Shown piece by piece: positions 21,951 to 43,292 of a stretch of 64,000 nucleotides of DNA; positions within the stretch are counted from its first letter, which is position 1; each line of letters begins with the position of its first letter. This DNA comes from a plasmid: assembly GCF_055900595.2 (NCBI RefSeq), contig NZ_JBVWEU010000003.1; one strand, given 5' to 3'. The notes beneath the pieces were generated by a model. It worked only from the letters and a program-made list of their open reading frames with translations, was not told the DNA's origin and did no database searches. Position numbers and translations under genes: made by a program.

Positions 21951-22011
21951 TGACACTGGCGGGGTAAATCCCCGCCTTTTTCCTGCCGGTCCCCGGACAG
22001 AGCACAAAGGA

Positions 22012-22350
22012 AGTCGCCGCAGGCTCCGCTTTACCCGGCCATGCGGGGCATGGCCTTGTGGGTTTTCAGTTATGTGGCCTCAGCGTCGTGTGCGGGCTGT
22101 GCCGTGCCTCCATCGTAGCCGGGCTTCTGCGGGCGGGTTGCAAGGTAAGGTGAACCGCTGCGGTCACCCGGTCCCTCCTTCCCGTCTGCCGTGATTTTCC
22201 GGTCGTTCACCCGCTCAGATTTCGCGGTCTCACCCTCCAACTCCCGTCAGCCGTGTGCGTCAGGCTGCGGCTTCCCTTGCGCCCTTGCAACCCTGCAGGC
22301 CCGGCAAAGATGGAGGCACGGCACCGCCCGGTGTCGCGGAATATGTGAAC
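22012..22350. repeat. Leading-region structured repeat, family A, copy 1 (upstream of klcA)
   Basis: About 340 bp nearly identical to 28968-29306; GC-rich with multiple hairpins; the ORFs drawn across it are probably spurious. Confidence 0.7.
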
Positions 22351-22366
22351 AACGGAGGAAAACATC

Positions 22367-22792
22367 ATGCAATATGCGAAACCTGTCACTCTGAACGTTG
22401 AAGAGTGCGACCGTCTGTCTTTTCTGCCTTACCTGTTTGGCCTGGATTTTCTGTATGCCGAAGCGTCTGTATACGCGCTGGCGAAAAAAATGATGCCGGA
22501 ATATGAAGGCGGATTCTGGCACTTCATTCGCCTGCCGGACGGTGGCGGTTACATGATGCCGGATGGCGACCGTTTCCACATGGTGAACGGTGCAAACTGG
22601 TTTGACCGTACCGTGAGTGCTGATGCCGCAGGCATCATCCTTACCTCCCTTGTGATTAACCGCCAGTTGTGGCTGTACCACGACAGCGGGGATGCAGGGT
22701 TGACACACCTGTACAGGATGCGTGATGCGCAGTTGTGGAGCCACATCGAATTTCACCCCGAATGCAACGCGATTTACGCGGCACTTGACTGA
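22367..22792 (+). CDS. klcA: KlcA/ArdB-family anti-restriction protein
   Basis: 141 aa; LSFLPYLFG…GGFWHF…DGGGYMMPD…SADAAGII follows the KlcA/ArdB pattern. Confidence 0.8.
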
Positions 22793-23652: not shown

Positions 23653-24150
23653 CTTCGGCTCCCGGCTGCCTGACGGCATCCGGTCGTCAGGCCCGACTCC
23701 GACAGGCAGCTGCTGGCGCACCCGCCAGTCTCCGCCGAACCCGCTGGCGCGGTTTCGGGCTGTCGCTACGGTCCGATGCGTGAAAACCCGGGCTTGCAGC
23801 GACCGTTCCGGTCGCGCCGCCCCTGTCGCGCCGTGACCTGCGCTCCCTGCACACCTGACGGTGTGTGAGGAAACTGCGCCTGATGGCGCAGCAGTCCTCC
23901 CTCCTGCCGCCACCCCTGCGGCCTGTTTCCCGCTGTGGACTTTCCGGGGGGCAGACGTAACCCCCTCCCGTTCCATCTGTCCAGGGTGAGATGCACCGGC
24001 CACAAAATTTTTAGCCATGAACCCGGCAAAAAATTTTGCGTCCGCCCCCGGACAGCTGCCCCGTGAGGCGGTAAACGGGCCCCCATCGGAAAGGTCCACT
24101 GCGGGGAGAAACCCCTGTGAAGTGGACGGCAGGAGGAGCTTTCGCTCCTC
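23653..24150. repeat. Leading-region structured repeat, family B, copy 1 (upstream of ssb; single-strand-promoter-like)
   Basis: About 500 bp shared with 30005-30512 and, in part, 33030-33365; contains hairpins CACACCTGACGGTGTG and CTGCGCCTGATGGCGCAG. Confidence 0.65.
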
Positions 24151-24219
24151 TGAAGGGGCACATGAACGTCCCGTCGCCGGTATCCGGTTTATCTCACATC
24201 TTTCAGTCAGGAGGTTCTT

Positions 24220-24747
24220 ATGAGTGCACGTGGTATCAACAAGGTCATCCTCGTCGGGCGTCTGGGCAATGATCCGGAAGTCCGTTACATCCCCAACGGG
24301 GGTGCAGTGGCAAACCTGCAGGTGGCTACGTCAGAAAGCTGGCGCGACAAACAGACGGGGGAGATGCGGGAGCAGACGGAATGGCACCGCGTGGTGCTGT
24401 TCGGCAAGCTCGCGGAAGTGGCAGGTGAATATCTGCGCAAGGGCGCGCAGGTCTACATCGAGGGGCAACTCCGTACCCGTAGCTGGGAAGATAACGGTAT
24501 CACCCGTTACGTCACTGAAATTCTTGTTAAGACCACGGGCACCATGCAGATGCTGGGGAGTGCACCACAGCAGAACGCTCAGGCGCAACCGAAGCCTCAG
24601 CAGAATGGGCAGCCACAGAGTGCTGACGCGACGAAAAAAGGTGGCGCGAAAACGAAAGGCCGTGGACGTAAGGCCGCGCAGCCCGAGTCTCAGCCGCAAC
24701 CGCCGGAGGGGGAGGATTACGGGTTTTCAGACGATATCCCGTTCTGA
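24220..24747 (+). CDS. ssb: Plasmid single-stranded DNA-binding protein
   Basis: OB-fold N-terminus ([23 protein letters not shown]…), Gln/Pro-rich linker and acidic tail DDIPF. Confidence 0.95.
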
Positions 24748-25101: not shown

Positions 25102-27060
25102 ATGTCAGTTACAGAGTCTAAGACAAAAACGGAGCGTAAATCCAGCCGTAAACCTGCAAAAACGCAGGAAACAGTCCTGTCTGCCCTGCTGGCGCAGACG
25201 GAGGAAGTGAGCGTGCCGCTGGCCTCACTGATTAAGTCACCGCTGAATGTGCGCACGGTGCCGTATTCTGCGGAGTCCGTCAGTGAACTGGCTGATTCCA
25301 TTAAGGGGGTCGGCCTGCTGCAGAATCTGGTTGTTCATGCCCTGCCAGGTGACCGCCACGGTGTCGCCGCAGGTGGTCGCCGACTGGCTGCACTCAATAT
25401 GCTGGCAGAGCGTGGCATCATTCCGGCGGACTGGCCTGTCCGCGTGAAGGTTATTCCGCAGGAACTGGCGACGGCGGCATCAATGACTGAAAACGGTCAT
25501 CGTCGGGATATGCACCCTGCTGAACAGATTGCCGGATTCCGCGCAATGGCGCAGGAAGGCAAAACACCTGCACAAATCGGTGATTTGCTGGGCTATTCAC
25601 CCCGCCATGTCCAGCGAATGCTGAAACTGGCTGACCTTGCGCCTGTCATCCTCGATGCGCTGGCAGAAGACCTCATCACCACCGAGCACTGTCAGGCGCT
25701 GGCGCTGGAGAACGACACCGCTCGTCAGGTGCAGGTGTTTGAAGCCGCCTGTCAGTCAGGATGGGGCGGTAAACCGGAAGTGCAGACCATTCGTCGTCTG
25801 GTGACCGAAAGTGAAGTGGCGGTGGCGGGGAACAGTAAATTCCGCTTCGTGGGGGCTGATGCCTTCTCGCCAGATGAACTGCGCACCGATTTGTTCAGCG
25901 ATGACGGGGACGGTTATGTCGACCGCGTGGCGCTCGATGCCGCCCTGCTGGAAAAACTCCAGGCTGTCGCTGAACACCTTCGGGAAGCCGAAGGCTGGGA
26001 ATGGTGCGCCGGACGTATGGAGCCTGTCGGTTTCTGCCGTGAGGATGCCGGAACATACCGCAGTCTGCCGGAGCCGGAAGCTGTGCTGACGGAGGCGGAA
26101 GAAGAACGCCTGAACGAACTGATGGCACGTTACGACGCGCTGGAAAATCAGTGTGAGGAATCCGACCTGCTGGAAGCAGAAATGAAGCTGATGCGCTGCA
26201 TGGCGAAGGTCAGGGCGTGGACGCCGGAGATGCGTGCCGGAAGTGGCGTGGTGGTGTCCTGGCGTTATGGAAACGTATGTGTCCAGCGTGGTGTGCAGTT
26301 GCGCAGTGAGGATGACGTGGCTGACGACGCTGGCCGCACGGAACAGGTGCAGGAGAAAGCCTCCGTGGAGGGAATCAGTCTGCCGCTGCTGACGAAAATG
26401 TCTTCCGAACGCACGCTGGCAGTCCAGGCGGCACTGATGCAGCAGCCGGACAAATCCCTGGCACTGCTGGCATGGACGCTCTGCCTGAATGTGTTTGGCA
26501 GCGGAGCGTACAGTAAACCAGCACAAATCAGCCTGGAATGTAAACATTATTCGCTGACCAGCGATGCGCCATCGGGGAAGGAAGGTGCCGCGTTCATGGC
26601 GATGATGGCAGAAAAAGCCCGTCTTGCGGCCCTGTTACCGGGGGGATGGTCACGGGACATGACGACGTTCCTTTCACTCAGTCAGGAGGTGCTGTTATCC
26701 CTGCTCAGTTTCTGCACCGCGTGCAGCATCCACGGCGTTCAGACCCGCGAGTGTGGTCACACGCCACGCAGCCCGCTGGACACGCTGGAGAGCGCCATCG
26801 GTTTTCACATGCGCGACTGGTGGCAGCCGACAAAAGCAAACTTCTTCGGACACCTGAAAAAGCCGCAGATTATCGCAGCCCTGAATGAGGCAGGACTGTC
26901 CGGTGCCGCACGGGACGCGGAGAAGATGAAGAAAGGCGATGCGGCTGAACATGCAGAGTTCCATATGAAAGACAACCGCTGGGTGCCTGGCTGGATGTGT
27001 GCACCACGTCCACAGACGGATACCACTGAACGCACTGATAACCTGGCTGATGCCGCCTGA
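25102..27060 (+). CDS. ParB-like nuclease-domain protein (large leading-region protein)
   Basis: 652 aa; N-terminal ParB/Srx-like motif (LQNLVVHALPGDRHGVAAGGRRLAA) followed by HTH-like segments. Confidence 0.75.
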   Translation: MSVTESKTKTERKSSRKPAKTQETVLSALLAQTEEVSVPLASLIKSPLNVRTVPYSAESVSELADSIKGVGLLQNLVVHALPGDRHGVAAGGRRLAALNMLAERGIIPADWPVRVKVIPQELATAASMTENGHRRDMHPAEQIAGFRAMAQEGKTPAQIGDLLGYSPRHVQRMLKLADLAPVILDALAEDLITTEHCQALALENDTARQVQVFEAACQSGWGGKPEVQTIRRLVTESEVAVAGNSKFRFVGADAFSPDELRTDLFSDDGDGYVDRVALDAALLEKLQAVAEHLREAEGWEWCAGRMEPVGFCREDAGTYRSLPEPEAVLTEAEEERLNELMARYDALENQCEESDLLEAEMKLMRCMAKVRAWTPEMRAGSGVVVSWRYGNVCVQRGVQLRSEDDVADDAGRTEQVQEKASVEGISLPLLTKMSSERTLAVQAALMQQPDKSLALLAWTLCLNVFGSGAYSKPAQISLECKHYSLTSDAPSGKEGAAFMAMMAEKARLAALLPGGWSRDMTTFLSLSQEVLLSLLSFCTACSIHGVQTRECGHTPRSPLDTLESAIGFHMRDWWQPTKANFFGHLKKPQIIAALNEAGLSGAARDAEKMKKGDAAEHAEFHMKDNRWVPGWMCAPRPQTDTTERTDNLADAA

Positions 27061-27114
27061 TGAACAACCACACCGCCCCGCCGGAGACGGGGCGGCAGCA
27101 AGGGAGATACCGTG

Positions 27115-27549
27115 ATGAAAACTGAACTGACCCTGAATGTATTACAGACCATGAGTGCACAGGAATATGAAGATATCCGTGCTGCGGGAAGCGATATGCG
27201 CCGTAATCTCACTCACGAGGTGATGCGTGAAGTGGACGCACCGGCTAACTGGATGATGAATGGCGAGTATGGCAGTGAGTTCGGGGGCTTTTTCCCCGTC
27301 CAGGTTCGTTTCACGCCAGCCCACGAACGTTTCCACCTGGTATTATGTTCGCCGGGAGAAGTCTCTCAGCTCTGGATGCTGGTTCTGGTGAATGGTGGTG
27401 GACAGCCTTTCGCCGTCGTTCAGGTGCAACATATCTTCACGCCTGTCGCGATCAGTCACACGCTGGCGCTCGCCGCGACACTTGATGCGCAGGGATACAG
27501 TGTTAACGACATCATTCATATTTTGATGGCAGAAGGAGGTCAGGCATGA
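27115..27549 (+). CDS. psiB: Plasmid SOS-inhibition protein PsiB
   Basis: [26 protein letters not shown]… matches PsiB; ATG follows the track's GTG by one codon. Confidence 0.9.
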
Positions 27550-28858: not shown

Positions 28859-28967
28859 ACCAGTGGAGGTATGCTTGAGGGGCAGGGACATGCCGGTCAT
28901 GATCGTTTCGTTCCAGGGGTGGTCTGGAGATCATGCGGCGTGTCCTCTGCACTCGCCGGAATAAGGA

Positions 28968-29306
28968 CGTCGCCGCCGGCTCCGCTTTTACCCGGCCATG
29001 CGGGGCATGGCCTTGTGGGTTTTCAGTTATGTGGCCGCCGTGTCGTGTGCGGGCTGTGCCGTGCCTCCATCGTAGCCGGGCTTCTGCGGGCGGGATGCAA
29101 GGTAAGATGAACCGCTGCGGTCACCCGGTCCCTCCTTCCCGTCTGCCGTGATTTTCCGGTCGTTCACCCGCTCAGATTTCGCGGTCTCACCCTCCAACTC
29201 CCGTCAGCCGTGCGCGTCGGGCTGCGGCTTTCCTTGCGCCCTTGCATCCCTGCAGGCCCGGCAAAGATGGAGGCACGGCACCGCCCGGTGTCGCAGAACA
29301 TGTGAC
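28968..29306. repeat. Leading-region structured repeat, family A, copy 2 (upstream of ardA)
   Basis: Near-identical to 22012-22350. Confidence 0.7.
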
Positions 29307-29322
29307 TATGGAGGATTCGGGA

Positions 29323-29823
29323 ATGTCTGTTGTTGCACCTGCTGTATACGTTGGAACCTGGCACAAATATAACTGCGGAAGCATCGCCGGCCGCTGGTTT
29401 GACCTGACCACGTTTGATGATGAACGCGATTTTTTCGCCGCCTGCCGTGCCCTTCACCAGGATGAAACCGATCCGGAACTGATGTTTCAGGATTATGAGG
29501 GTTTCCCGGGGAATATGGCCTCTGAATGTCATATCAACTGGGCCTGGGTTGAAGGCTTCCGCCGGGCACGGGATGAAGGCTGCGAAGAGGCTTATCGTCT
29601 CTGGGTGGATGATACCGGTGAGACGGATTTTGACAGCTTCCGCGATGCCTGGTGGGGCGAGGCTGACAGTGAGGAGGCTTTTGCGGTTGAGTTCGTCAGT
29701 GATACCGGCCTGCTGGCTGACGTGCCGGAGACGGTGGCGCTCTATTTTGACTATGAGGCGTATGCGCGGGATTTATTCCTGGACTCCTTCACCTTTATTG
29801 ACGGTCATGTGTTCCGTCGGTGA
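29323..29823 (+). CDS. ardA: ArdA anti-restriction protein (DNA mimic)
   Basis: MSVVAPAVYVGTWHKYNCGSIAGRWFDL…DYEAYARDLFLDSFTFIDGHVFRR matches ArdA; start taken at the internal ATG. Confidence 0.9.
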   Translation: MSVVAPAVYVGTWHKYNCGSIAGRWFDLTTFDDERDFFAACRALHQDETDPELMFQDYEGFPGNMASECHINWAWVEGFRRARDEGCEEAYRLWVDDTGETDFDSFRDAWWGEADSEEAFAVEFVSDTGLLADVPETVALYFDYEAYARDLFLDSFTFIDGHVFRR

Positions 29824-30004: not shown

Positions 30005-30512
30005 CCTTCGGCTCCCGGCTGCCTGGCGGCATCCGGTCGTCAGGCCCGACTCCGACAGGCAGCTGCTGGCGCACCCGCCAGTCTCCGCCGAACCCGCTGG
30101 CGCGGTTTCGGGCTGCCGCTACGGTCCGATGTCTGAAAAACCAGGCCTGCAGCGACCGTTCCGGTCGCGCCGCCCCTGTCGCGCCGGAAACGGCGCTCCC
30201 TGCACACCTGACGGTGTGTAAGGCCACTGCGCCTGATGGCGCAGTTGTCTGCCCTTCCGCCGCCACCCCTGCGGCCTGTTTCCCGCTGTGGACTTTCCGG
30301 GGGCTGAAGCGGCCACAACACGTTTCAGCCGTCCAGGGGAGAGATGTACCAGCCACAAAACTTTTTGCCGCAGGCGTCAAAAACTTTTGCGTCTGCCCCC
30401 GGACAACTGCCCCGTGCCGTGGCAGTCGCTGCCCCATCGGAAAGGTCCACTGCGGGGAGAAACCCCGAAGAAGTGGACGGCAGAAGGGGCTTTCGCCCCT
30501 CCGGGGAATAAC
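30005..30512. repeat. Leading-region structured repeat, family B, copy 2
   Basis: Shares the hairpin-rich sequence with copy 1; immediately precedes the ORF at 30555. Confidence 0.65.
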
Positions 30513-30554
30513 CGGTCGGCCCGGCGACCTGATTCAGCAGAAGGAGACGTTTTC

Positions 30555-30989
30555 ATGACAGTCAGCAGCACGATTTCCGTTTTTTGCCGAGACGGGGTGT
30601 TCCGTACCGTTTACTGCCACCTGCACGGTGAGCCGACCTGGAACGGTCGCATCCTGCATACCCACTATGCCACCGGTCAGCTGGCCGAAGCCCTGGTTGA
30701 ACACGGAGATATCCGTTGCCTCGGTCCCCGTTGCGACAAACCCGCCGGGCATACGCTTCAGAACCCGGTGGACGGTGTGACGGCTTATTACGGACGTGAC
30801 AGTGGTTTCCGGATGGACAGTGAAGCGCGTGAGTACCGCTCTTTCAGGGAGGCTATTGCCACTGAAAGCACAGAAGAGGTGCGCTTCCATTATGTGTTCA
30901 TCGACGGCTACTGGAAGGTGATGTACCGCACGCCGGAAGGCTGGAAGATGAAAGCGCTCGCGCTGGCACTGCGTCGCTGTCCGGAATGA
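30555..30989 (+). CDS. Hypothetical protein downstream of a family-B repeat
   Basis: 144 aa; AGGAGA Shine-Dalgarno sequence before the ATG; same position relative to the repeat as ssb. Confidence 0.5.
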   Translation: MTVSSTISVFCRDGVFRTVYCHLHGEPTWNGRILHTHYATGQLAEALVEHGDIRCLGPRCDKPAGHTLQNPVDGVTAYYGRDSGFRMDSEAREYRSFREAIATESTEEVRFHYVFIDGYWKVMYRTPEGWKMKALALALRRCPE

Positions 30990-31081
30990 AAAAAAGCAGG
31001 GCGATAAACCCTGCCTTTCTCCGCCGGCGCTTCCCCGTACGGAAGTCCGGCATCTCATTCACTAACTATGGAGATTATGCT

Positions 31082-31348
31082 ATGAGGCCATCAATTATCT
31101 TCGCAACCGCCGAGTATGTAAAGCGTCTGCGTGAAGAGTGCCGGCGGGAGAACAAACCCCTGCACCGCCATACCCGCTTCAGACGCCAGGAACTGGCACC
31201 GGATGAGATTAACCCGGACGTCCTGGCGATGGGCGGTCATATCGCCAGACGCTGCAGTGAGCGGAAGCGGGTGCGTATCCCCGCCATGAAAGTCAGCGAA
31301 TGGGGCCACCTGCTCCGCGCGCTTGAAATTGAGCGGGTCTGCCACTGA
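31082..31348 (+). CDS. Hypothetical basic small protein
   Basis: 88 aa starting MRPSIIF after a GGAG Shine-Dalgarno-like sequence. Confidence 0.35.
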   Translation: MRPSIIFATAEYVKRLREECRRENKPLHRHTRFRRQELAPDEINPDVLAMGGHIARRCSERKRVRIPAMKVSEWGHLLRALEIERVCH

Positions 31349-31412
31349 TTAACCCTTGCCGTCTGCCTGTGCAGGCGGCAGGATACGTTCAGACATCTCA
31401 CCAGGAGGAACC

Positions 31413-32330
31413 GTGAGTAAGAAGAAAACCACCACGACGCCCACGCCGCATGATGCCGCGTTCCGGTCGTTCCTGGCGAACCCCGACGTCGCCAGAGATT
31501 TTCTGGAACTGCATCTTCCGGCGGAGTACCGGCAGTTGTGCGACCTGTCCACGCTGAAGCTGGAACCCGCCACCTTTGTTGAGCCGGACCTGCATCAGTA
31601 CGCCAGCGATATCCTCTGGAGTGTGAAAACCACCGGGGGTGAAGACGGCTATATTTATACGCTCATCGAGCACCAGAGCACCGAAAATCTGTACATGCCT
31701 TTCCGCATGTTACGTTACAGTGTGGCGGCGATGCAGAGACATCTGGAGCAGCACAAAACATTGCCACTGGTGATTCCGGTGCTGTTCTATCATGGTGAGC
31801 GCAGCCCGTACCCGTACAGCATGAACTGGCTGGACTGTTTTGAGGATCCGGCACTTGCGGCTAAAATATACACAAAGCCGTTTCCGCTGGTTGATATCAC
31901 TGTCGTTGATGACAATGAAATCATGAACCATCGCCGGATGGCCGCACTGACGCTGCTGATGAAGCATATCCGTCAGCGGGATATGCTGATGTGTCTGGAC
32001 AACCTGGTCAGGGCACTGCAGGACATCCAGGATGAAGAGCAGATTACAGTTCTTTTCAACTATCTGCTTAATGGCAGCGAACATGTAACGGTTAAATTTT
32101 TGCAGACGCTGGCGCAGCGACTGCCGCAGCACGAGGACAGCATTATGACACTGGCAGAACGTCTTAAGCAGGAAGGAATACAGCAGGGAATACAGCAGGG
32201 AATACAGAAAGGCCGCATGGAGGAGAAGCTGGATATTGCGCGTCAGCTTCAGAAAACGGGAATGTCATTTGCACAAATCTGTCAGATCACCGGACTTTCT
32301 GAAGCCGAACTGAAAAAAATCGCCCACTGA
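31413..32330 (+). CDS. Rpn-family (YhgA-like) recombination-promoting nuclease
   Basis: GTG start 7 bp after AGGAGG; N-terminal HDAAFRSFLANPDVARDFLELHLP and YTLIEHQST motifs typical of Rpn proteins; C-terminal QQGIQQGIQQGIQKG tail. Confidence 0.7.
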   Translation: MSKKKTTTTPTPHDAAFRSFLANPDVARDFLELHLPAEYRQLCDLSTLKLEPATFVEPDLHQYASDILWSVKTTGGEDGYIYTLIEHQSTENLYMPFRMLRYSVAAMQRHLEQHKTLPLVIPVLFYHGERSPYPYSMNWLDCFEDPALAAKIYTKPFPLVDITVVDDNEIMNHRRMAALTLLMKHIRQRDMLMCLDNLVRALQDIQDEEQITVLFNYLLNGSEHVTVKFLQTLAQRLPQHEDSIMTLAERLKQEGIQQGIQQGIQKGRMEEKLDIARQLQKTGMSFAQICQITGLSEAELKKIAH

Positions 32331-32342
32331 GTAAACATCACA

Positions 32343-32368
32343 GCCCGGCAAAATGCCGGGCTTTTTTG
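32343..32368 (+). terminator. Rho-independent terminator after the Rpn gene
   Basis: GCCCGGCAAAATGCCGGGC hairpin followed by TTTTTT. Confidence 0.6.
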
Positions 32369-32394
32369 TCAGCAGGAGCAGAGCAAACAGCATG

Positions 32395-32550
32395 ACGATT
32401 GCAGAACGTCTTATTCAAAAAGGCGCTCTTGAAGTGGCGCGGGAAATAGCCTGCCGGCTTCGGGATATGGGCTGGACGCCGGAACGGATTCAGGAGGCAA
32501 CCGGACTTTCCGGTGAAGAACTGAAAAAACTGTTTCCTGATGAGCTGTAG
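32395..32550 (+). CDS. Free-standing small protein resembling the Rpn C-terminal tail (RpnS-like)
   Basis: MTIAERLIQKGALEVAREIACRLRDMGWTPERIQEATGLSGEELKKLF parallels the last ~55 aa of the adjacent Rpn (MTLAERLKQEG…ICQITGLSEAELKKIAH). Confidence 0.45.
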   Translation, partial: TIAERLIQKGALEVAREIACRLRDMGWTPERIQEATGLSGEELKKLFPDEL

Positions 32551-32580
32551 CCTGGCATTCTGCCAGGCTGTGAATCACGC

Positions 32581-32832
32581 TCACACATCCTCTGCCGTTT
32601 CCCCCAGTTCATTTTCCAGTCGCCTGATGATATCTGCCTTACGCATCCCCTGCATGTGAGGCAGCAGGTCACGGACTGAAAGAGCCTGGGTGGTCCTCCA
32701 GACGGTGACGTCCACCTGTTCCGCATTTTCCCAGGCGTGCCATGTTCTCTGCGTCACGCCAAATTCTCTGGCCGCTTTTTCGCGTGACCAGAGCATGCTT
32801 TTTCGCCAGATTCGCAGTTCCCAGCCGGTCAT
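32581..32832 (-). CDS. Putative small HTH DNA-binding regulator
   Basis: 83 aa; KAAREFGVTQRTWHAWE is HTH-like; divergent from the downstream operator-like palindromes. Confidence 0.4.
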   Translation of the reverse strand: MTGWELRIWRKSMLWSREKAAREFGVTQRTWHAWENAEQVDVTVWRTTQALSVRDLLPHMQGMRKADIIRRLENELGETAEDV

Positions 32833-32844
32833 AAAACACCTTTG

Positions 32845-32935
32845 AAAAAGTGAAAAAACTTCACTTTATTTTATCATCATAATCATCAAATCAGCGCGAT
32901 AAATAAGTGTGAAAAAGTGAAGAAATTTCACTTTT
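32845..32935. promoter_or_regulatory. Two operator-like palindromes AAAGTGAA-N5-TTCACTTT
   Basis: Two copies about 65 bp apart in an AT-rich spacer between the HTH gene and the family-B repeat. Confidence 0.4.
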
Positions 32936-33029
32936 TTTTGATTGTGGGTGTCGTGCTGTTTTCTCTGTTTTCACCTGTGCGGGAGTGGTGCGCCAGTGAC
33001 CACAGCATGCCGTTGTTGTGCCGTCGGTT

Positions 33030-33365
33030 TTCTCCGGTCGCGCCGGATGCGGCGCTCCCTGCACACCTGACGGTGTGTAAGGCCACTGCGCCTGATGGCG
33101 CAGCTGTCTCTGCCTGTCTGCCGCCGCACTGCGGCCCGTTCTCCGCAGACGGACTTTCCGGGGGTACATACACGACCACATCCCGTTTCAGTCGTCCAGG
33201 GGAGAGATGTACCAGCCACAAAACTTTTTGCCGCAGGCGTCAAAAACTTTTGCGTCTGCCCCCGGACAACTGCCCCGTGACGTGGTGAGCGTCCCCCGTC
33301 GGAAAGGTCCACTGCGGGGAAATCCCCGAAGACCCGGACGGCAGAAGGAGCTTCGCTCCTCCGGG
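33030..33365. repeat. Leading-region structured repeat, family B, copy 3 (partial)
   Basis: Shares the distal ~330 bp of copies 1 and 2; precedes the ORF at 33410. Confidence 0.6.
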
Positions 33366-33409
33366 AAATGACCTGGCTGACCCGGCAGTCGTGACGATGA
33401 GGAGACAAT

Positions 33410-34261
33410 GTGATGAATCAGACTTTACCCACTGCTGACCTGAATACTGCCGGCACGACAGATGTTATTCCGTCTGTGGCTATCGACCGCATCATCGCGC
33501 AGCGTAACGAAGGTATTACACTGTTCATGCAGGCGATGGAATGCCTGGCGACAGCGCGCAGGATTCTGCTCGATGCGTCAGGTGATATTTTTCTTTACGG
33601 GTTTGAAGACTGCGTGACTGATTCCGTTCGTCGCATGGATAAACCGGAAGAAGCGAAAAGGAATATCACCCGTCTTGCCGACCGGAAAATCTGGGACCGC
33701 CTGATGACAGATACGGGCATGTACACCTTCATGAGTTCATGCCAGCGTGATGAGTGGAACAGCCAGCTGATGAGCGACACCTGTCCTGAAATCACCCTGG
33801 ACAATGTACTGGCAACATTCCGCCATCTGAATGCCAGCAAAATGCAGACATTTGAACAGGGACTGATTGATGTCTACCGGAAATTGTCATGGGATTACAG
33901 AACCAATAATCCCTGCCGTCTGGGCAAGAAAATCATTATTGAAAACCTGCTGTACCGCTGGAGTAACGGGCGTGTGACGCTGGACTGCAGCGGACGGGAG
34001 GCACTGGATGACCTGGTACGTCCGTTTTATCTGCTGGAGGGGCGCAACGTTCCTGACTTCCGGAGCAGCATCGGGGCGCAGTATTGTGAATTTCTCGGGA
34101 ACGGCGACAATATCGGTGAGTTGTTTGAAGGGGAATATTTTACGGTGCGTGGCTACCAGAAAGGAACCGTACACATTGTCTTTAAGCGTTCTGACCTTGT
34201 TGAAAAACTGAATGATATTATTGCACGGCATTATCCTGGTGCATTGCCGCCACGAGTCTGA
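33410..34261 (+). CDS. Hypothetical 283-aa protein downstream of a family-B repeat
   Basis: GAGGAGA Shine-Dalgarno sequence before the ATG; followed by a terminator hairpin with a T-run (34272-34300). Confidence 0.5.
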   Translation: MMNQTLPTADLNTAGTTDVIPSVAIDRIIAQRNEGITLFMQAMECLATARRILLDASGDIFLYGFEDCVTDSVRRMDKPEEAKRNITRLADRKIWDRLMTDTGMYTFMSSCQRDEWNSQLMSDTCPEITLDNVLATFRHLNASKMQTFEQGLIDVYRKLSWDYRTNNPCRLGKKIIIENLLYRWSNGRVTLDCSGREALDDLVRPFYLLEGRNVPDFRSSIGAQYCEFLGNGDNIGELFEGEYFTVRGYQKGTVHIVFKRSDLVEKLNDIIARHYPGALPPRV

Positions 34262-34719: not shown

Positions 34720-34910
34720 TATCATCAAAAACTGACTCCTGGCAGGGCTGCGCCCTGCCTCTGCCGTCTGCATAAGACTATGATGCACAAAAATAACAGG
34801 CTATAATTGCATGAAAAACGGGACAGGATGTGGGAATGTCGGACCGCGCACGCGCACTCAGACATTCCCCACCTGGTCAGGGCTTTGCCCCGACACCCCG
34901 GTAAGGAGCA
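34720..34910. other. Origin of transfer (oriT) region
   Basis: Inverted repeats GGCAGGGC-TGC-GCCCTGCC and GGGAATGTC…GACATTCCC; minus-strand GGTGTCGGGGCAAAGCCCTGACCAGGTGG resembles the R64-type nick region as I recall it; lies directly upstream of nikA. Confidence 0.55.
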
Positions 34911-35258: not shown

Positions 35259-37979
35259 ATGAATGCCATTATTCCGCACAAAAGACGTGACGGCAGGTCT
35301 TCCTTTGAAGACCTGATTGCGTACACGTCTGTGCGGGATGATGTGCAGGAAAATGAGCTCACAGAAGACAGCGAAATCAAGAGTGATGTCCCTCACCGCA
35401 ACCGTTTCAGACGGCTTGTTGATTATGCAACACGCCTGCGTAACGAAAAATTTGTCTCCCTGATTGATGTGATGAAAGACGGCAGTCAGTGGGTAAATTT
35501 CTATGGCGTAACCTGTTTCCATAACTGCAATTCACTGGAAACAGCTGCTGAAGAGATGCAGTACAAGGCGGACAAAGCTGTTTTTTCCCGTAATGATACA
35601 GACCCCGTTTTCCACTACATTCTTTCCTGGCCTGCGCATGAAAGCCCGCGTCCTGAGCAGCTTTTTGACTGTGTGCGTCACACACTGAAATCTCTTGAAC
35701 TCTCAAAACATCAGTACGTGGCTGCCGTTCATACGGACACGGATAATCTGCATGTGCATGTTGCCGTGAATCGTGTACATCCTGAAACTGGTTATATTAA
35801 CTGGCTTTCCTGGAGCCAGGAAAAACTCAGTCGTGCATGCCGTGAACTTGAACTTAAGCACGGATTTGCGCCGGATAATGGCTGCTTTGTGCATGCACCC
35901 GGCAACCGTATTGTGCGCAAAACAGCGCTGGTACGTGAGCGCCGTAATGCCTGGCGACGCGGGAAAAAGCAGACGTTCAGGGAATATATTGCGCAGATGT
36001 CGATTGCCGGGCTGCGTGAAGAGCCCGCACAGGACTGGTTATCTTTGCATAAACGGCTGGCCAGTGATGGTCTGTATATCACGATGCAGGAAGGGGAACT
36101 GGTGGTGAAGGATGGCTGGGACAGAGCGCGGGAAGGTGTTGCACTCAGTTCGTTCGGACCGTCATGGACAGCTGAAAAACTGGGGCGGAAACTGGGGGAA
36201 TATCAGCCTGTACCGACAGATATTTTCAGTCAGGTGGGGACACCCGGTCGTTATGATCCGGAAGCCATAAACGTGGATATCCGGCCGGAAAAAGTGGCAG
36301 AAACGGAGAGTCTGAAACAGTACGCCTGTCGTCACTTTGCTGAACGCTTACCGGAAATGGCGCGAAATGGTGAACTGAAAAGTTGCCTGGCTGTACACCG
36401 TACTCTGGCAGAGGCGGGATTATGGATGGGGATTCAGCACGGGCATCTGGTACTGCATGATGGATTTGATAAACAACAGACACCAGTACGTGCAGACAGT
36501 GTGTGGCCGTTAATGACGCTGGATTATATGCAGGATCTGGATGGTGGATGGCACTCTGTACCGAAGGATATTTTTACTCAGGTTATACCCGAAGAACGAT
36601 TCCGGGGACACAGTATTGGCACTCAGGCTGTCAGCGATTACGAATGGTATCGCATGAGGATGGGCACTGGTCCACAGGGTGCCATAAAGCGTGAACTGTT
36701 TTCCGATAAGGAAAGTCTGTGGGGATACGCTCTTATTCAGTGCAGGAGCCAGATTGAAGAGATGATAGCTGGCGGGGATTTCAGCTGGCAGGCATGTCAT
36801 GAGATGTTTGCGCGTAAAGGGCTTATGCTGCAGAAACAGCATCATGGTCTCGTGATTGTGGATGCGTTTAATCATGAACTGACACCGGTGAAGGCCAGCA
36901 GTATCCACCCGGATTTGACGTTATCCCGGGCCGAGCCTCAGGCCGGGCCATTTGAAATTGCGGCTGCAGATATTTTCGAACGGGTGAAGCCTGAATGTCG
37001 CTACAATCCGGAACTTGCTGCCAGTGATGAAGTGGAGCCCGGCTTCCGGCGCGATCCTGAGCTGCGTCGTGAGCGCCGTGAAGCCCGTGCAGCTGCGCGG
37101 GAAGATTTGCGTGCGCGTTATCTTGCATGGAAGGAACACTGGCGTAAACCCGATTTACGTTACGGCGAACGGTTGCGGGAAATTCATGCTGCCTGCCGTC
37201 GTCGCAAGGCTCATATCCGCGTGCAGTTCCGGGATCCACAATTGCGTAAACTGCATTACCATATTGCAGAAGTGCAACGTATGCAGGCGCTGATCAGACT
37301 GAAGGAAAATGTCAGGGAAGAGCGACTGGCGCTGATGGCGGAGGGTAAGTGGTATCCGTTGTCCTACCGGCAGTGGGTGGAACAACAGGCGGCGCAAGGC
37401 GACAGAGCTGCAGTGTCACAGCTCCGAGGCTGGGATTATCGCGATCGTCGCTCGCGTAATAAGGATAAAAGACGCACAACTAATGCTGATCGTTGTGTCG
37501 TTCTCTGCGAACCCGGAGGAACGCCACTTTTTAATAATGTTGCAAAACTTGAAGCTCGTCTTCAGAAAAATGGAAGTGTTCATTTCAGGGATACGCGGAC
37601 AGGAAAAAATGTCTGTACGGATTACGGAGATCGGGTTGTGTTCTACCATCACACGGACCGAAATGAACTGGCAGAGAAGCTTGATTTAATTGCGCCAGTT
37701 CTGTTCAGCCGCAACGGAAAGCTTGGTTTTGAGCCGGAAGGTTCATACCAGCAGTTTAATGATGTGTTTGCAGAAATGGTGGCCTGGCACAATGCAGCGG
37801 GAATAACCGGAAACGGACACTTCACCATTACTCGTCCGGACGTGGATTTGCACCGTCAACGCAGTGAGCAGTATTACCGGGAATATATCAGACAGCAGAC
37901 CCGTTTATCGGAGAGCCATGATGATAATTATACGTTACGGCAGGAGAAAACATGGGAGCCACCATCACCTGGAATGTAA
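35259..37979 (+). CDS. nikB: Relaxase NikB (MOBP family)
   Basis: 906 aa immediately after nikA; N-terminus contains HxDTDNLHVHVAVNRV (histidine triad). Confidence 0.85.
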   Translation: MNAIIPHKRRDGRSSFEDLIAYTSVRDDVQENELTEDSEIKSDVPHRNRFRRLVDYATRLRNEKFVSLIDVMKDGSQWVNFYGVTCFHNCNSLETAAEEMQYKADKAVFSRNDTDPVFHYILSWPAHESPRPEQLFDCVRHTLKSLELSKHQYVAAVHTDTDNLHVHVAVNRVHPETGYINWLSWSQEKLSRACRELELKHGFAPDNGCFVHAPGNRIVRKTALVRERRNAWRRGKKQTFREYIAQMSIAGLREEPAQDWLSLHKRLASDGLYITMQEGELVVKDGWDRAREGVALSSFGPSWTAEKLGRKLGEYQPVPTDIFSQVGTPGRYDPEAINVDIRPEKVAETESLKQYACRHFAERLPEMARNGELKSCLAVHRTLAEAGLWMGIQHGHLVLHDGFDKQQTPVRADSVWPLMTLDYMQDLDGGWHSVPKDIFTQVIPEERFRGHSIGTQAVSDYEWYRMRMGTGPQGAIKRELFSDKESLWGYALIQCRSQIEEMIAGGDFSWQACHEMFARKGLMLQKQHHGLVIVDAFNHELTPVKASSIHPDLTLSRAEPQAGPFEIAAADIFERVKPECRYNPELAASDEVEPGFRRDPELRRERREARAAAREDLRARYLAWKEHWRKPDLRYGERLREIHAACRRRKAHIRVQFRDPQLRKLHYHIAEVQRMQALIRLKENVREERLALMAEGKWYPLSYRQWVEQQAAQGDRAAVSQLRGWDYRDRRSRNKDKRRTTNADRCVVLCEPGGTPLFNNVAKLEARLQKNGSVHFRDTRTGKNVCTDYGDRVVFYHHTDRNELAEKLDLIAPVLFSRNGKLGFEPEGSYQQFNDVFAEMVAWHNAAGITGNGHFTITRPDVDLHRQRSEQYYREYIRQQTRLSESHDDNYTLRQEKTWEPPSPGM

Positions 37980-40499: not shown

Positions 40500-41604
40500 T
40501 GTGATTATCCTCGGTATCTGTGGCTTTCAGGAACAGGCTGACGGTAGTGGCGTCTTTCAGGATGCCGGACGGCAGGTGCCAGCCGGTATCGGATAACACC
40601 CATGGGGTACCGCCAAAACCGAACTGGCGGAAAGCCTGGTTATTGACATCGATGGCAGCACGAGCAGCGGTCAGACACTTTTCATCCGGTGCAGCCGGTG
40701 CATCGACGGTGGGTGCCATACCACCGTCTGCGGAATACAGCTGATGCCATCCGGTCGCCCGTTTTTGTGCGTCCGGTTCACACAGCAGTGGCGCAGTCCG
40801 GTTTGTGCTGGCCTCTCCGCCGATTACGGAGACCGGATAAATCACCACGCTGAATTCCCGGGCCAGTTGCTTAAGCGCGGGCTCCAGAAGACGGCAGTTG
40901 ATGCATGCGGGGTCAAGGAAGGCGTAGAGTGTGCGTTCATGACCAGTGGAGAGATTAATGGTGAACATACCCCGGTCCGCGTTGCGTTTAAGTACTGTGG
41001 ACAGATTACGGCGGGCCTCAGCGGCCTGAACGTGTTGTTCTTCCGTCACTGCCGTCGGGGCGGGGGCAGAAGAAGGTTCCTGCTGTGTGGGAGCCGGGCG
41101 GGCCGGGATGCTGTTAACATGATGTTCCGTATGTGGGCGTGGTGTCTCTGTGTCGGTTACTGGTTCAGCTCTCCATTCCTGAGATGTAGGGTAAGCCAGC
41201 GTGGAAGGGGGCTCTGCCTTCATCCAGTGGTAACCTGCAACTGTCGCCGGCAGAGCAATTCCGGCGATAAAGCCACACATCAGTGTCCGCCAGAAGCCAT
41301 ATTTCCGGGAGGGATGTTTTCCTTTTCCGGCATATTCGGCATCCAGGCAGGCATCAATCGCTGAGAGCATTCTGCCGATGTGATGTCCGGGACGTTCTGC
41401 ATCAACGGTATCAACAAGCACCGTTTCGGTTATTTCGCGAAAAGGGGAACTGAAGGACAGGTGCATCAGCCTGTTATTACGGTTAATCAGTGCGCCCAGT
41501 TCTGTTACCGGCAGGATGGCAATCACCTCCCGATTACCGTCAGGGTACAGGGCGGTCAGGGACAGGTGTTTATTATTCAGTGTTGCAGTGTAGTGGATGG
41601 TCAT
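40480..41604 (-). CDS. trbB: TrbB-like thiol-disulfide isomerase (DsbC-like)
   Basis: 374 aa with a thioredoxin-type CxxC (DPACINC) in the C-terminal half. Confidence 0.7.
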   Translation of the reverse strand: MTIHYTATLNNKHLSLTALYPDGNREVIAILPVTELGALINRNNRLMHLSFSSPFREITETVLVDTVDAERPGHHIGRMLSAIDACLDAEYAGKGKHPSRKYGFWRTLMCGFIAGIALPATVAGYHWMKAEPPSTLAYPTSQEWRAEPVTDTETPRPHTEHHVNSIPARPAPTQQEPSSAPAPTAVTEEQHVQAAEARRNLSTVLKRNADRGMFTINLSTGHERTLYAFLDPACINCRLLEPALKQLAREFSVVIYPVSVIGGEASTNRTAPLLCEPDAQKRATGWHQLYSADGGMAPTVDAPAAPDEKCLTAARAAIDVNNQAFRQFGFGGTPWVLSDTGWHLPSGILKDATTVSLFLKATDTEDNHNEPASR

Positions 41605-42962
41605 TGTTCTTTTTCCTTGTCGGCGGGATCCTGTTTTTCGGTGGTTTCGGTGGTTTCGGTGGTTTCGGTGGTTTCGGTGGTTTCGGTGGTTTCGGTGGTT
41701 TCGGTGGTTTCGGTGGTTTCGGTGGTTTCGGTGGTTTCGGTGGTTTCACCAGTGTCAGTGTCTTCGTCGTTATCATGGCGGCGGGGTATCACGTCATCCG
41801 TGAGTGACCAGCGGGTCCTGATCTGACGTTTACGATCGCGATCTGGCTGAGGTTCGTCCCATATCAGGCCCAGCCCCAGCATGTCCCGTCGAAGCCCTTC
41901 AATGGCCTCTTCCACACAGGGTTCCGGGCAGGGGAGGCCGAGACGGCTGGCTTCATTTTCTGCCCGGGCAACGGCCACCACGCCGGCCCCTTCGATGAAG
42001 CCTTTTGTGGTGTTTGCCCGGTGAAGGGCATAGAAGAGCGTCCGGTCAACGCCCTTGAGCCACAGCCAGTTCGGAGGCGTCAGGCGCAAATCATGTGCGT
42101 AAAGCCAGACCAGACCGCTGCGAACGTAACGGTGCTGCCTGAGCCACTTTTGTGCGCCTTCTGTTTTGATGACCCGGATAAAGGCGTTTCTGGCCAGTGA
42201 ATACACCGGCGTGCTGAAACGCCCCTGGTCCCGTTTACTTTTGAGCCTGCAGGAGAGATTGAGGTTGTTCATCAGGGCTACCGCTGCTTTCCGGTCACCG
42301 AGGAAGAACTGCAGGCCAAAGATGGCAAAGAGCGCTTTTTCATGTGGGGCCATGTCTTTCCAGCTGGTCAGTGGTTGCCCCAGTTGCGCCATGAAGCACT
42401 GGCGTGTGGACGCAACATCGAGCTGCATGTTGCGGATAAGGTTGTTCTGCTCCACAAAGGCTTCGGGGGTTAGTGCGACACGGCGCTCGGGACGTTTTTG
42501 TCCGTGGAAGAGTCTGTTGTTGTCTCCATCAGCCAGAACGGGGGCGATCGCCGGTGACAGAGCTGAAAAAATATGGGGCAGTGTGTGGATATTCAGTGGC
42601 CTGCGGGTAAAACGGGGCTGGGCCGGATGGTGAAACCACATCCACAGAAAGCCGAATGTCATGGGAAGCAGAATCAACCAGAGGATCCCCACTGTCCGGG
42701 ACATAACATCCAGCCACTGGCTGAAAGTGATGGTTGCCGCGTTGTTAGCAGTGATGGCCAGCAGGTTGTAACGGGGGGCGGCAAAGTTGTGAAAGGGCCC
42801 CCAGTCAATCATGCCCCACAGTGTGTGCAGGATCAGGCAGGAGGCGAAGACGATTTCAGGTAAAAAGCGCCAGATGATAATCGCAAAGAGCAGGCATATG
42901 GCACCGACGATATACCATATAGCCATTGGATCTTCGGCGGCAGACGTCTGTTGGTAAGACAC
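41601..42962 (-). CDS. trbA: TrbA-like membrane protein with C-terminal (ETT)n repeat
   Basis: 453 aa; multiple transmembrane helices; the C-terminus is encoded by tandem 9-bp repeats. Confidence 0.7.
   Translation of the reverse strand: MSYQQTSAAEDPMAIWYIVGAICLLFAIIIWRFLPEIVFASCLILHTLWGMIDWGPFHNFAAPRYNLLAITANNAATITFSQWLDVMSRTVGILWLILLPMTFGFLWMWFHHPAQPRFTRRPLNIHTLPHIFSALSPAIAPVLADGDNNRLFHGQKRPERRVALTPEAFVEQNNLIRNMQLDVASTRQCFMAQLGQPLTSWKDMAPHEKALFAIFGLQFFLGDRKAAVALMNNLNLSCRLKSKRDQGRFSTPVYSLARNAFIRVIKTEGAQKWLRQHRYVRSGLVWLYAHDLRLTPPNWLWLKGVDRTLFYALHRANTTKGFIEGAGVVAVARAENEASRLGLPCPEPCVEEAIEGLRRDMLGLGLIWDEPQPDRDRKRQIRTRWSLTDDVIPRRHDNDEDTDTGETTETTETTETTETTETTETTETTETTETTETTETTEKQDPADKEKEQ
41637..41755. 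repeat. Tandem 9-bp repeat GGTGGTTTC, about 13 copies (in-frame, encodes Glu-Thr-Thr repeats at the TrbA C-terminus)
   Basis: Direct read of the sequence; on the coding strand GAA-ACC-ACC. Confidence 0.9.
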
Positions 42963-43104
42963 GGGGATTCCTCCATAGATGAATGGATAAATTTCGGGAT
43001 TAAGTCGGGTGGCATGAATGCGAATCAGCGCCGGTAATAACCGGACAGGAATGAGTTCAACAGGACATTTTCACAGAGAAGAGCGTGGGAGACAGGTACA
43101 AAAA

Positions 43105-43135
43105 AACCGACTGGTGAGGTCGGTTTTTTTGCTAT
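43105..43135. terminator. Bidirectional terminator-like hairpin (A-run / CCGACC…GGTCGG / T-run)
   Basis: Symmetric stem flanked by A7 and T7 runs, downstream of trbA start region. Confidence 0.4.
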
Positions 43136-43292
43136 TCCGGGGCGGAGTTGGTGACTCTGACCGAAAGGGAAATCACTCTACATCTAACACCATCATAGTA
43201 GGCTGCGCTTCTCTTTTTTGCAATCAGAAAAATGACTATAATCGCTCCGTTAGCTCTGTCTGGTGATGCTTCTGCCCTTTAATAAAATATGC

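Follow-up and report, generated by a model that had tools for sequence, protein, structure and literature searches.

In pESBL, six operons of the plasmid leading region, including those behind the elements ssi1, ssi2, and ssi3, are induced up to ∼500-fold by 15 min of conjugation, with start sites located by 5′ rapid amplification of cDNA ends, and this induction is more prolonged when the recipient is a uvrD mutant, in which the DNA remains single-stranded (PMC12672017; Nucleic Acids Research, 2025). The same report describes class-2 single-stranded DNA (ssDNA) promoters for the pESBL genes ardA and klcA. Among the largest protein families enriched in leading regions, Samuel et al. (2024; PMC11541004) list family 24 (2171 members; open reading frame [ORF] position 1 from the origin of transfer, oriT), labeled "Uncharacterized; DUF4942; Methyltransferase," and family 23 (2203 members; position 7), labeled "PndC (Hok/Sok TA related)." Here, we analyzed one representative of each in a 64,000-nt stretch of plasmid DNA (the window; RefSeq assembly GCF_055900595.2, contig NZ_JBVWEU010000003.1): ORF144 (30555-30989, plus strand), which we placed in family 23 from its PndC label and position, and ORF283 (33410/33413-34261, plus strand), the DUF4942 protein YdiA of family 24. 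A preliminary description of the sequence had proposed both as candidate new anti-defense genes because they sit, like ssb, behind a repeat termed family B and lie among ardA, klcA, and psiB.

The window comes from an IncK2/Z (I-complex) conjugative plasmid, and its gene order is that of the I-complex leading region. The segment from 28 to 37 kb has counterparts in thousands of enterobacterial conjugative plasmids, the top match being an Escherichia coli IncK2/Z, MOBP, MPF_I plasmid (98.4% over 9 kb). ORF144 and ORF283 are each 98% identical to a pESBL-EA11 protein, O3K_RS25985 (Hp16) and O3K_RS26015 (Hp22), respectively, and the complete ssi1-ORF283 unit is 98.4% identical to that of pESBL. 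In pMS7163B (IncB/O/K/Z), gene 820 (435 nt) was equated with ORF144 and gene 760 (849 nt) with the DUF4942 gene by gene length and order. A literature search retrieved no paper characterizing either the DUF4942/YdiA or the ORF144 family and no report of anti-defense activity for them.

Single-strand promoters upstream of ORF144 and ORF283

The family-B repeat occurs in exactly three copies in the window (23823-24153, 30176-30503, and 33037-33363), which are ∼80 to 89% identical pairwise over ∼330 nt, well above chance. Comparison with the ColIb-P9 Frpo reference sequences (Supplementary Table of Samuel et al. 2024; PMC11541004) identified these copies as class-1 ssDNA promoters: ssi3/Frpo3 at 23823-24153 (99% to ColIb-P9 Frpo3), which drives ssb and downstream genes; ssi2/Frpo2 at 30176-30503 (89% to ColIb-P9 Frpo2 and 90% to pESBL ssi2), upstream of ORF144; and ssi1/Frpo1 at 33037-33363 (99% to both ColIb-P9 Frpo1 and pESBL ssi1), upstream of ORF283. 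The elements also match ssiD of F partially (74%). All three match ssi/Frpo on the minus strand, and the genes that they precede are on the plus strand. Their alignment stops at one common point, from which the start codons lie at 67 nt for ssb (24220-24747, plus strand; defined from the ORF list and the annotation of near-identical plasmids), our reference gene for this arrangement, 52 nt for ORF144, and 47 to 50 nt for ORF283. Each of these starts has a good Shine-Dalgarno sequence, and no sigma-70-like site was found in duplex form directly upstream of ORF144 or ORF283. Folded as ssDNA, both ssi2 (−110.5 kcal/mol; z = −9.5 versus shuffled controls) and ssi1 (−103.9 kcal/mol; z = −8.5) adopt a long stem-loop. 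The ssi1 and ssi2 units thus have three features of class-1 ssDNA promoters: the homology, the orientation and leading-side location, and the stable stem-loop. ORF144 and ORF283 are strongly supported as genuine conserved protein genes of the I-complex leading region, and each is, with equally strong support, the first cistron behind such a promoter (ssi2 for ORF144, ssi1 for ORF283).

The oriT region (∼34818-34899), just upstream of nikA, was recognized by an inverted repeat and a conserved nick-proximal sequence. The 3′ nick-proximal 27 nt are 96% identical to the pESBL oriT (pESBL coordinates from PMC4288162), whereas the inverted repeat (GGGAATGTC...GACATTCCC) is unlike that of pESBL, which fits with the identities of 68% for NikA versus 95% for NikB between related I-complex plasmids. 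From the location of oriT it follows that the minus strand is the transferred strand (T-strand), entering 5′ to 3′ toward lower coordinates, and that ORF283 is the first T-strand-oriented gene to reach the recipient. By analogy with pESBL, a burst of expression of both ORFs from the entering single strand is predicted and firmly supported; the pESBL expression data are carried over because the proteins are 98%, ssi1 99%, and ssi2 90% identical. Upon entry of the minus strand into the recipient, each ssi would fold into a long hairpin mimicking a duplex promoter, and RNA polymerase would transcribe the still single-stranded template, yielding a burst of protein that would fade as the complementary strand is made.

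In both respects of layout and dispensability, the two genes resemble the zygotic genes ardA, klcA, psiB, ssb, and M.EcoGIX of IncI1 and IncF plasmids: they share the plasmid sector, the orientation, and the transferred strand as template; they are likewise first cistrons after a hairpin promoter; and they are dispensable for pESBL mating into laboratory recipients. They resemble none of these genes in sequence or fold. Transposon sequencing (TnSeq) of pESBL assigned Hp16 posteriors of 0.76 for non-essential, 0.24 for maintenance, and 0.00 for transfer (PMC4288162, Table 2), and Hp22, ArdA, PsiB, and M.EcoGIX were non-essential at 1.00 (PMC4288162). After conjugation of pMS7163B, transposon-directed insertion-site sequencing gave log2 fold changes of +1.30 for gene 820 and +1.02 for gene 760, neither being required (PMC10286972). 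Both screens used laboratory recipients only.

The ORF283 and ORF144 protein families

Translation of ORF283 likelier begins at ATG 33413 (282 aa) than at GTG 33410 (283 aa), since RefSeq annotates 849-nt homologues and a GAGGAG Shine-Dalgarno sequence lies 8 nt before the ATG but just 5 nt before the GTG. Its residues 91-276 match Pfam DUF4942 (PF13708) at model positions 5-189 of 190 (E = 2.6e-50), and searches of NCBIfam, PADLOC, and PDB sequences returned no match. A 548-position PHROG family named "DNA methyltransferase" also matches ORF283 (E = 9e-18), at its positions 75-286 only, and tblastn against phages retrieved 65 records, many with methyltransferase annotation. Two of the phage proteins, gp32 of Marinomonas phage P12026 (519 aa) and gp22 of Pseudomonas phage phiPSA1 (543 aa), exemplify DUF4942-methyltransferase fusions (PHROG 6263): both match Pfam DUF4942, at residues ∼80-270, and carry a separate C-terminal domain with motif I (LEPSAGxG) and motif IV (NPPF/NPPY). 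ORF283 aligns with their N-terminal ∼270 residues (∼27% identity; tblastn E = 3e-15 and 9e-16) and ends at the domain boundary, without the linker and the gamma-class (N6-adenine methyltransferase) C-terminal domain; in a four-way alignment its terminus coincides exactly with the onset of the phage C-terminal extension. Judged from these alignments, ORF283 is a putative stand-alone, non-catalytic version of the N-terminal module of the phage fusions, an assignment added by the present analysis. Neither motifs I and IV nor the Rossmann-like fold of S-adenosylmethionine-dependent DNA methyltransferases was found in ORF283, and its AlphaFold2 model (pLDDT, the predicted local distance difference test, 84) had no methyltransferase fold match. 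We therefore rejected ORF283 as a methyltransferase, and, the catalytic domain being absent, the "methyltransferase" label is unsupported.

A split enzyme made of ORF283 and the DNA methylase encoded by the plasmid itself (19778-20461) was considered and is not supported: in that methylase DPPY precedes FxGxG, i.e., it is beta-class, whereas the C-terminal domains of the phage fusions are gamma-class and show no similarity to it. The two proteins may nevertheless be physical partners. PLSDB has more than 5000 plasmid records with a DUF4942 gene (92% conjugative), and ∼2000 plasmids carry ORF283 at at least 95% identity. A pOXA-48-type IncL plasmid has its DUF4942 gene in an establishment array, on the same strand as klcA, ssb, DUF1380, and JAB/RadC genes. 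A chromosomal DUF4942 relative in the SPI-3 region of Salmonella is broken across small annotated ORFs and was uninformative.

ORF144 had no hits in Pfam, NCBIfam, PADLOC, or PDB. Its residues 1-126 match PHROG 1987 and 23089 (E ∼1e-20), two phage families of unknown function, and an exhaustive search yielded 1836 representative clusters at E ≤ 0.001. None of 81 sampled members of the family gave a meaningful Pfam match. On these searches we define a large, mostly phage-borne family outside Pfam, the definition being another addition of this work. The AlphaFold2 model of ORF144 is confident (pLDDT 96; predicted template modeling score 0.90) and had no Foldseek match in the PDB. Residues Y20, H22, D24, G25, H66, Y79, R81, D82, R83, Y113, and W120 are conserved in the family alignment, and ORF144 shares H22, H66, R81-D82, Y113, and W120 with PHROG 1987/23089. 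The plasmid clade is a divergent offshoot, located behind an ssDNA promoter and not in a phage early-gene array, and ORF144 itself departs from the family at five positions where at least 81% of sampled members share one residue (T3V, D24H, Y26E, S54R, and R83S). The majority of distant relatives belong to phages, where they lie in long arrays of co-directional small genes and near genes for DNA ligase, RtcB, dUTPase, RNase T, AlkB-like proteins, and N6/N4 methyltransferases; one adjoins two ArdC genes. Pfam revealed no known antirestriction family in 23 longer relatives. The longer relatives include fusions to a WYL_2 domain, a gp32-like ssDNA-binding domain, and a tail-fiber-like segment, all single cases and too sporadic to derive a function for ORF144, a route that we discarded. 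Among plasmids, ORF144 is found in 2016 PLSDB records, of which 94% are conjugative and nearly all carry it at at least 95% identity.

Many GenBank records and UniRef name ORF144 "post-segregation killing protein PndC," and because of that name family 23 was filed as hok/sok-related by Samuel et al. (2024). We rejected this identity. PndC is the mok-like frame of the pnd killer locus, of hok/sok type, and ORF144 shares only its name: the true pndC/pndA locus of pESBL is at 79766-79976, outside the leading region, with pndC as a 204-nt frame (79766-79969) overlapping pndA. No similarity between ORF144 and this locus was detected by tblastn, nor was there a hok-like ORF or an Rfam match at 30.5-31.1 kb.

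ORF144 also shows an allelic difference. In three related draft plasmid contigs (L013-L015), a 143-aa homologue only 52% identical to ORF144 occupies the same position, whereas most other leading-region proteins are 87 to 100% identical to those of the window (ArdA, 97.6%; the 88-aa protein encoded downstream of ORF144, 95.5%), the exceptions being Rpn (80.0%) and NikA (68.2%). DNA identity to L013 is 97 to 100% on both flanks and falls to 42 to 67% only at ∼30510-30971 (7950-8420 in L013). From this comparison, the difference is a precise, gene-sized allelic replacement, a new observation of the present analysis. The swap is compatible with antagonistic coevolution, although no proof of it, and might be an arms-race signal. 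Plasmids with different ORF144 alleles nevertheless share the minus-strand helix-turn-helix (HTH) gene at 32581-32832 at 100% identity.

The ssi2 operon and the surrounding genes

Downstream of ORF144, the ssi2 operon continues with an 88-aa ORF (31082-31348, plus strand) as second cistron and a gene for an Rpn-family recombination-promoting nuclease (31413-32330, plus strand; TIGR01784, E = 4e-55) as third. The 88-aa protein is very basic (pI 10.4), matches neither PHROG nor NCBIfam, and by size and ORF position probably belongs to the YdfB/YdaB/YgdA family, the largest leading-region family of Samuel et al. (2024). Gene length and order equate it with pMS7163B_00810 ("810"; 267 nt), the overexpression of which causes a severe growth defect (PMC10286972). 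With ORF144, a toxic 88-aa protein, and Rpn in one operon, ssi2 shows that ssi-driven units are functionally mixed. An intrinsic-terminator-like hairpin at 32342-32362 (plus strand; 9 bp, 7 of them GC, with a T-run) would end this operon. Just past the Rpn gene, a 65-aa ORF (32353-32550, plus strand) has weak similarity (E ∼3e-4) to the last 45 residues of Rpn-family models and is reminiscent of the short C-terminal fragments of Rpn that have been described as intragenic antitoxins; as it begins within the hairpin, it may be a relic. The HTH gene at 32581-32832 appears, by size and ORF position, to be family 22 of Samuel et al. (2024), "anti-CRISPR-associated gene 6 (aca6)-like."

ORF283 is the only gene of the ssi1 unit. 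Between it and nikA lies a 113-aa ORF on the minus strand, and nikA is followed by the relaxase gene nikB (35259-37979). On the other side of ssi2, the neighbors named in the preliminary description are all in place: ardA (29323-29823, plus strand; 166 aa, pI 4.1), psiB (27112-27549), and a klcA/ardB-type antirestriction gene (22367-22792). Between psiB and ardA are psiA and then a 198-aa ORF. The ssi3 unit includes a ParB-like gene of the YfjB/HerB type (25102-27060, plus strand; 652 aa), which sits between ssb and psiB and is separated from ssb by a DUF905 gene. Upstream of ardA and klcA, at 28962-29303 and 22003-22337 (both minus strand), lie the two copies of another repeat, family A, of the class-2 ssDNA-promoter type; they form a direct repeat of 97% identity and share 78 to 79% identity with the sequence that Samuel et al. 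(2024) name Frpo′ 4.

Further along, AgrB, the antisense RNA of a dinQ-like type I toxin, scores 50.4 bits at 43098-43187 (minus strand) and is the sole Rfam match in the window at the gathering threshold; a DinQ-like toxin, DqlB, is annotated elsewhere on the pESBL backbone. A run of hexanucleotide repeats at 41600-41800 encodes (TE)n within a 453-aa minus-strand ORF (41601-42962), its other frames reading (KPP)n, (GFG)n, and (WFR)n.

Candidate roles in the recipient

Dispensability of both genes in laboratory recipients, as for ardA, psiB, and M.EcoGIX in pESBL, led us to infer that their action on the recipient is most likely conditional and part of plasmid establishment. Within that setting, action of the ORF144/ORF283 pair against a recipient barrier, i.e., anti-defense, is the single most likely class of function, and we favor it tentatively. 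The mobile-element setting of the homologues, with ArdC genes next to ORF144 relatives and the pOXA-48-type establishment array around a DUF4942 gene, speaks for this class, as does the dispensability shared with known anti-defense genes. ORF283 would retain the ability of the module to bind DNA or a restriction-modification partner and would thereby shield the incoming DNA or titrate a host enzyme. As for ORF144, a predicted small alpha/beta protein, the pattern of its conserved His/Asp/His/Arg-Asp cluster points to either a small enzyme or a protein that binds a ligand or metal, which may act on a host factor. A more ambitious and, as a whole, unlikely version of anti-defense would make the ORF144 family a new counter-defense class of phages and conjugative plasmids (an enzyme or sponge built around that cluster), the stand-alone DUF4942 protein a methyltransferase-derived decoy against restriction-modification or a related system, and the allele swap an arms-race trace.

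As to the preliminary description, its positional argument gained from the identification of the repeats as experimentally characterized promoters, and both ORFs kept their uncharacterized status, with no match to a known anti-defense, defense, or housekeeping family. The structure prediction and fold comparison that it called for gave a confident ORF144 model without a PDB counterpart and an ORF283 model without a methyltransferase fold match. Novelty is the part that did not hold, given that families 23 and 24 had already been listed by Samuel et al. (2024): the description is accurate, but its subject is a set of published I-complex features in copies near-identical to those studied, and the idea of both families as anti-defense candidates, although reasonable, is already in print.

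Several points speak against anti-defense. Neither ORF is an acidic DNA mimic (pI, the isoelectric point, is 7.05 for ORF144 and 5.56 for ORF283 versus 4.13 for ArdA), and a DNA-mimic antirestriction protein was rejected for both on composition. In the pMS7163B screen, ardA scored as needed for conjugation and genes 820 and 760 did not (PMC10286972). The departures of ORF144 from its family consensus may mean that an ancestral catalytic activity has been lost, and PLSDB has no copy of the divergent ORF144 allele, which is rare. Since the ssi2 operon encodes a toxic protein and Rpn, and the ssi3 unit a HerB-type gene, being ssi-driven does not imply anti-defense. Pfam searches found no match of either ORF to the antirestriction families ArdA, KlcA/ArdB, ArdC, and Ocr-type, the absence of PADLOC hits set aside membership in a defense system, and no Rfam family matched in the ORF region.

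The HerB-type gene also introduces the most serious competitor, namely, that both ORFs are establishment or host-reprogramming factors not aimed at defense, which would transiently change transcription, DNA metabolism, single- to double-strand conversion, or the cost of acquisition. HerB, the recent name of the ParB-like YfjB of F, has been described as a reprogrammer of host transcription; it binds the host chromosome and, like the products of the two ORFs, is a conserved, zygotically induced leading-region protein that was previously uncharacterized. HerB has no homology to either ORF, and its example makes leading-region position alone no predictor of anti-defense. That neither ORF matches an anti-defense family agrees with such a role, as do the DNA- and RNA-metabolism genes (ligase, RtcB, dUTPase, RNase T, and AlkB-like) around the phage relatives of ORF144 and the two sporadic fusions of this family with gp32-like ssDNA-binding and WYL_2 domains. 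We nonetheless consider it somewhat unlikely: no DNA-binding or regulatory domain is recognizable in either ORF, DUF4942 is evolutionarily tied to DNA methyltransferases, which points to restriction-modification biology, and the gene-sized replacement at ORF144 better fits an antagonistic interaction. The growth inhibition caused by the second ssi2 cistron raises another option, in which ORF144 would not be host-directed but would serve as antitoxin or modulator to a partner from its own operon, either the toxic 88-aa protein (810/YdfB) or Rpn. Its place immediately ahead of a gene whose overexpression severely impairs growth would suit this role, as would the posterior of 0.24 for "essential for maintenance" of Hp16 in the pESBL TnSeq, its neighbors scoring 0.00. 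Insertions in the ORF144 homologue were tolerated in both the pESBL and the pMS7163B screens, though, and the under-representation of insertions upstream of 810 was orientation-biased and attributed to transposon-promoter read-through (PMC10286972). Moreover, the YdfB/YdaB family is about twice the size of the ORF144 family (4739 versus 2203 members), and phage relatives of ORF144 have no 810-like neighbor. Neither obligate co-occurrence nor intolerance to loss of the antitoxin, the hallmarks of a type II toxin-antitoxin pair, was found for ORF144 and the 88-aa protein, and the partnership is improbable.

The remaining two explanations carry far less weight. The ORFs could be passengers, with the ssi elements serving mainly as primers for complementary-strand synthesis and the genes downstream having no role in transfer. 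The Frpo RNA has been described as a primer besides a transcript, in work as cited in PMC12672017, and neither gene had a transfer phenotype in the two transposon screens. What makes passengers very improbable is the strong conservation (∼2000 plasmids carry each gene at at least 95% identity), the depth of the protein families with their confident folds and good ribosome-binding sites, and the fixed position of both genes across I-complex plasmids. An orphan DNA methyltransferase role for ORF283, protecting the entering plasmid from restriction, would agree with the source names in Supplementary Table 1 of Samuel et al. (2024) ("Methyltransferase domain" and "restriction methylase"), with the PHROG family match, and with the annotation of the phage homologues as methyltransferases; already contradicted by the sequence, it is scarcely credible.

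For annotation, the name "PndC" is wrong for ORF144, and "methyltransferase" is unsupported for stand-alone DUF4942 proteins; both labels distort functional counts of leading regions. I-complex, IncL/M, and IncF plasmids rank among the main carriers of extended-spectrum beta-lactamase and carbapenemase genes, and the ORF144 and DUF4942 proteins are among the first made in a new host. Should either of them counter a recipient barrier, this would contribute to an explanation of plasmid host range, and efforts to limit plasmid spread would gain a target.

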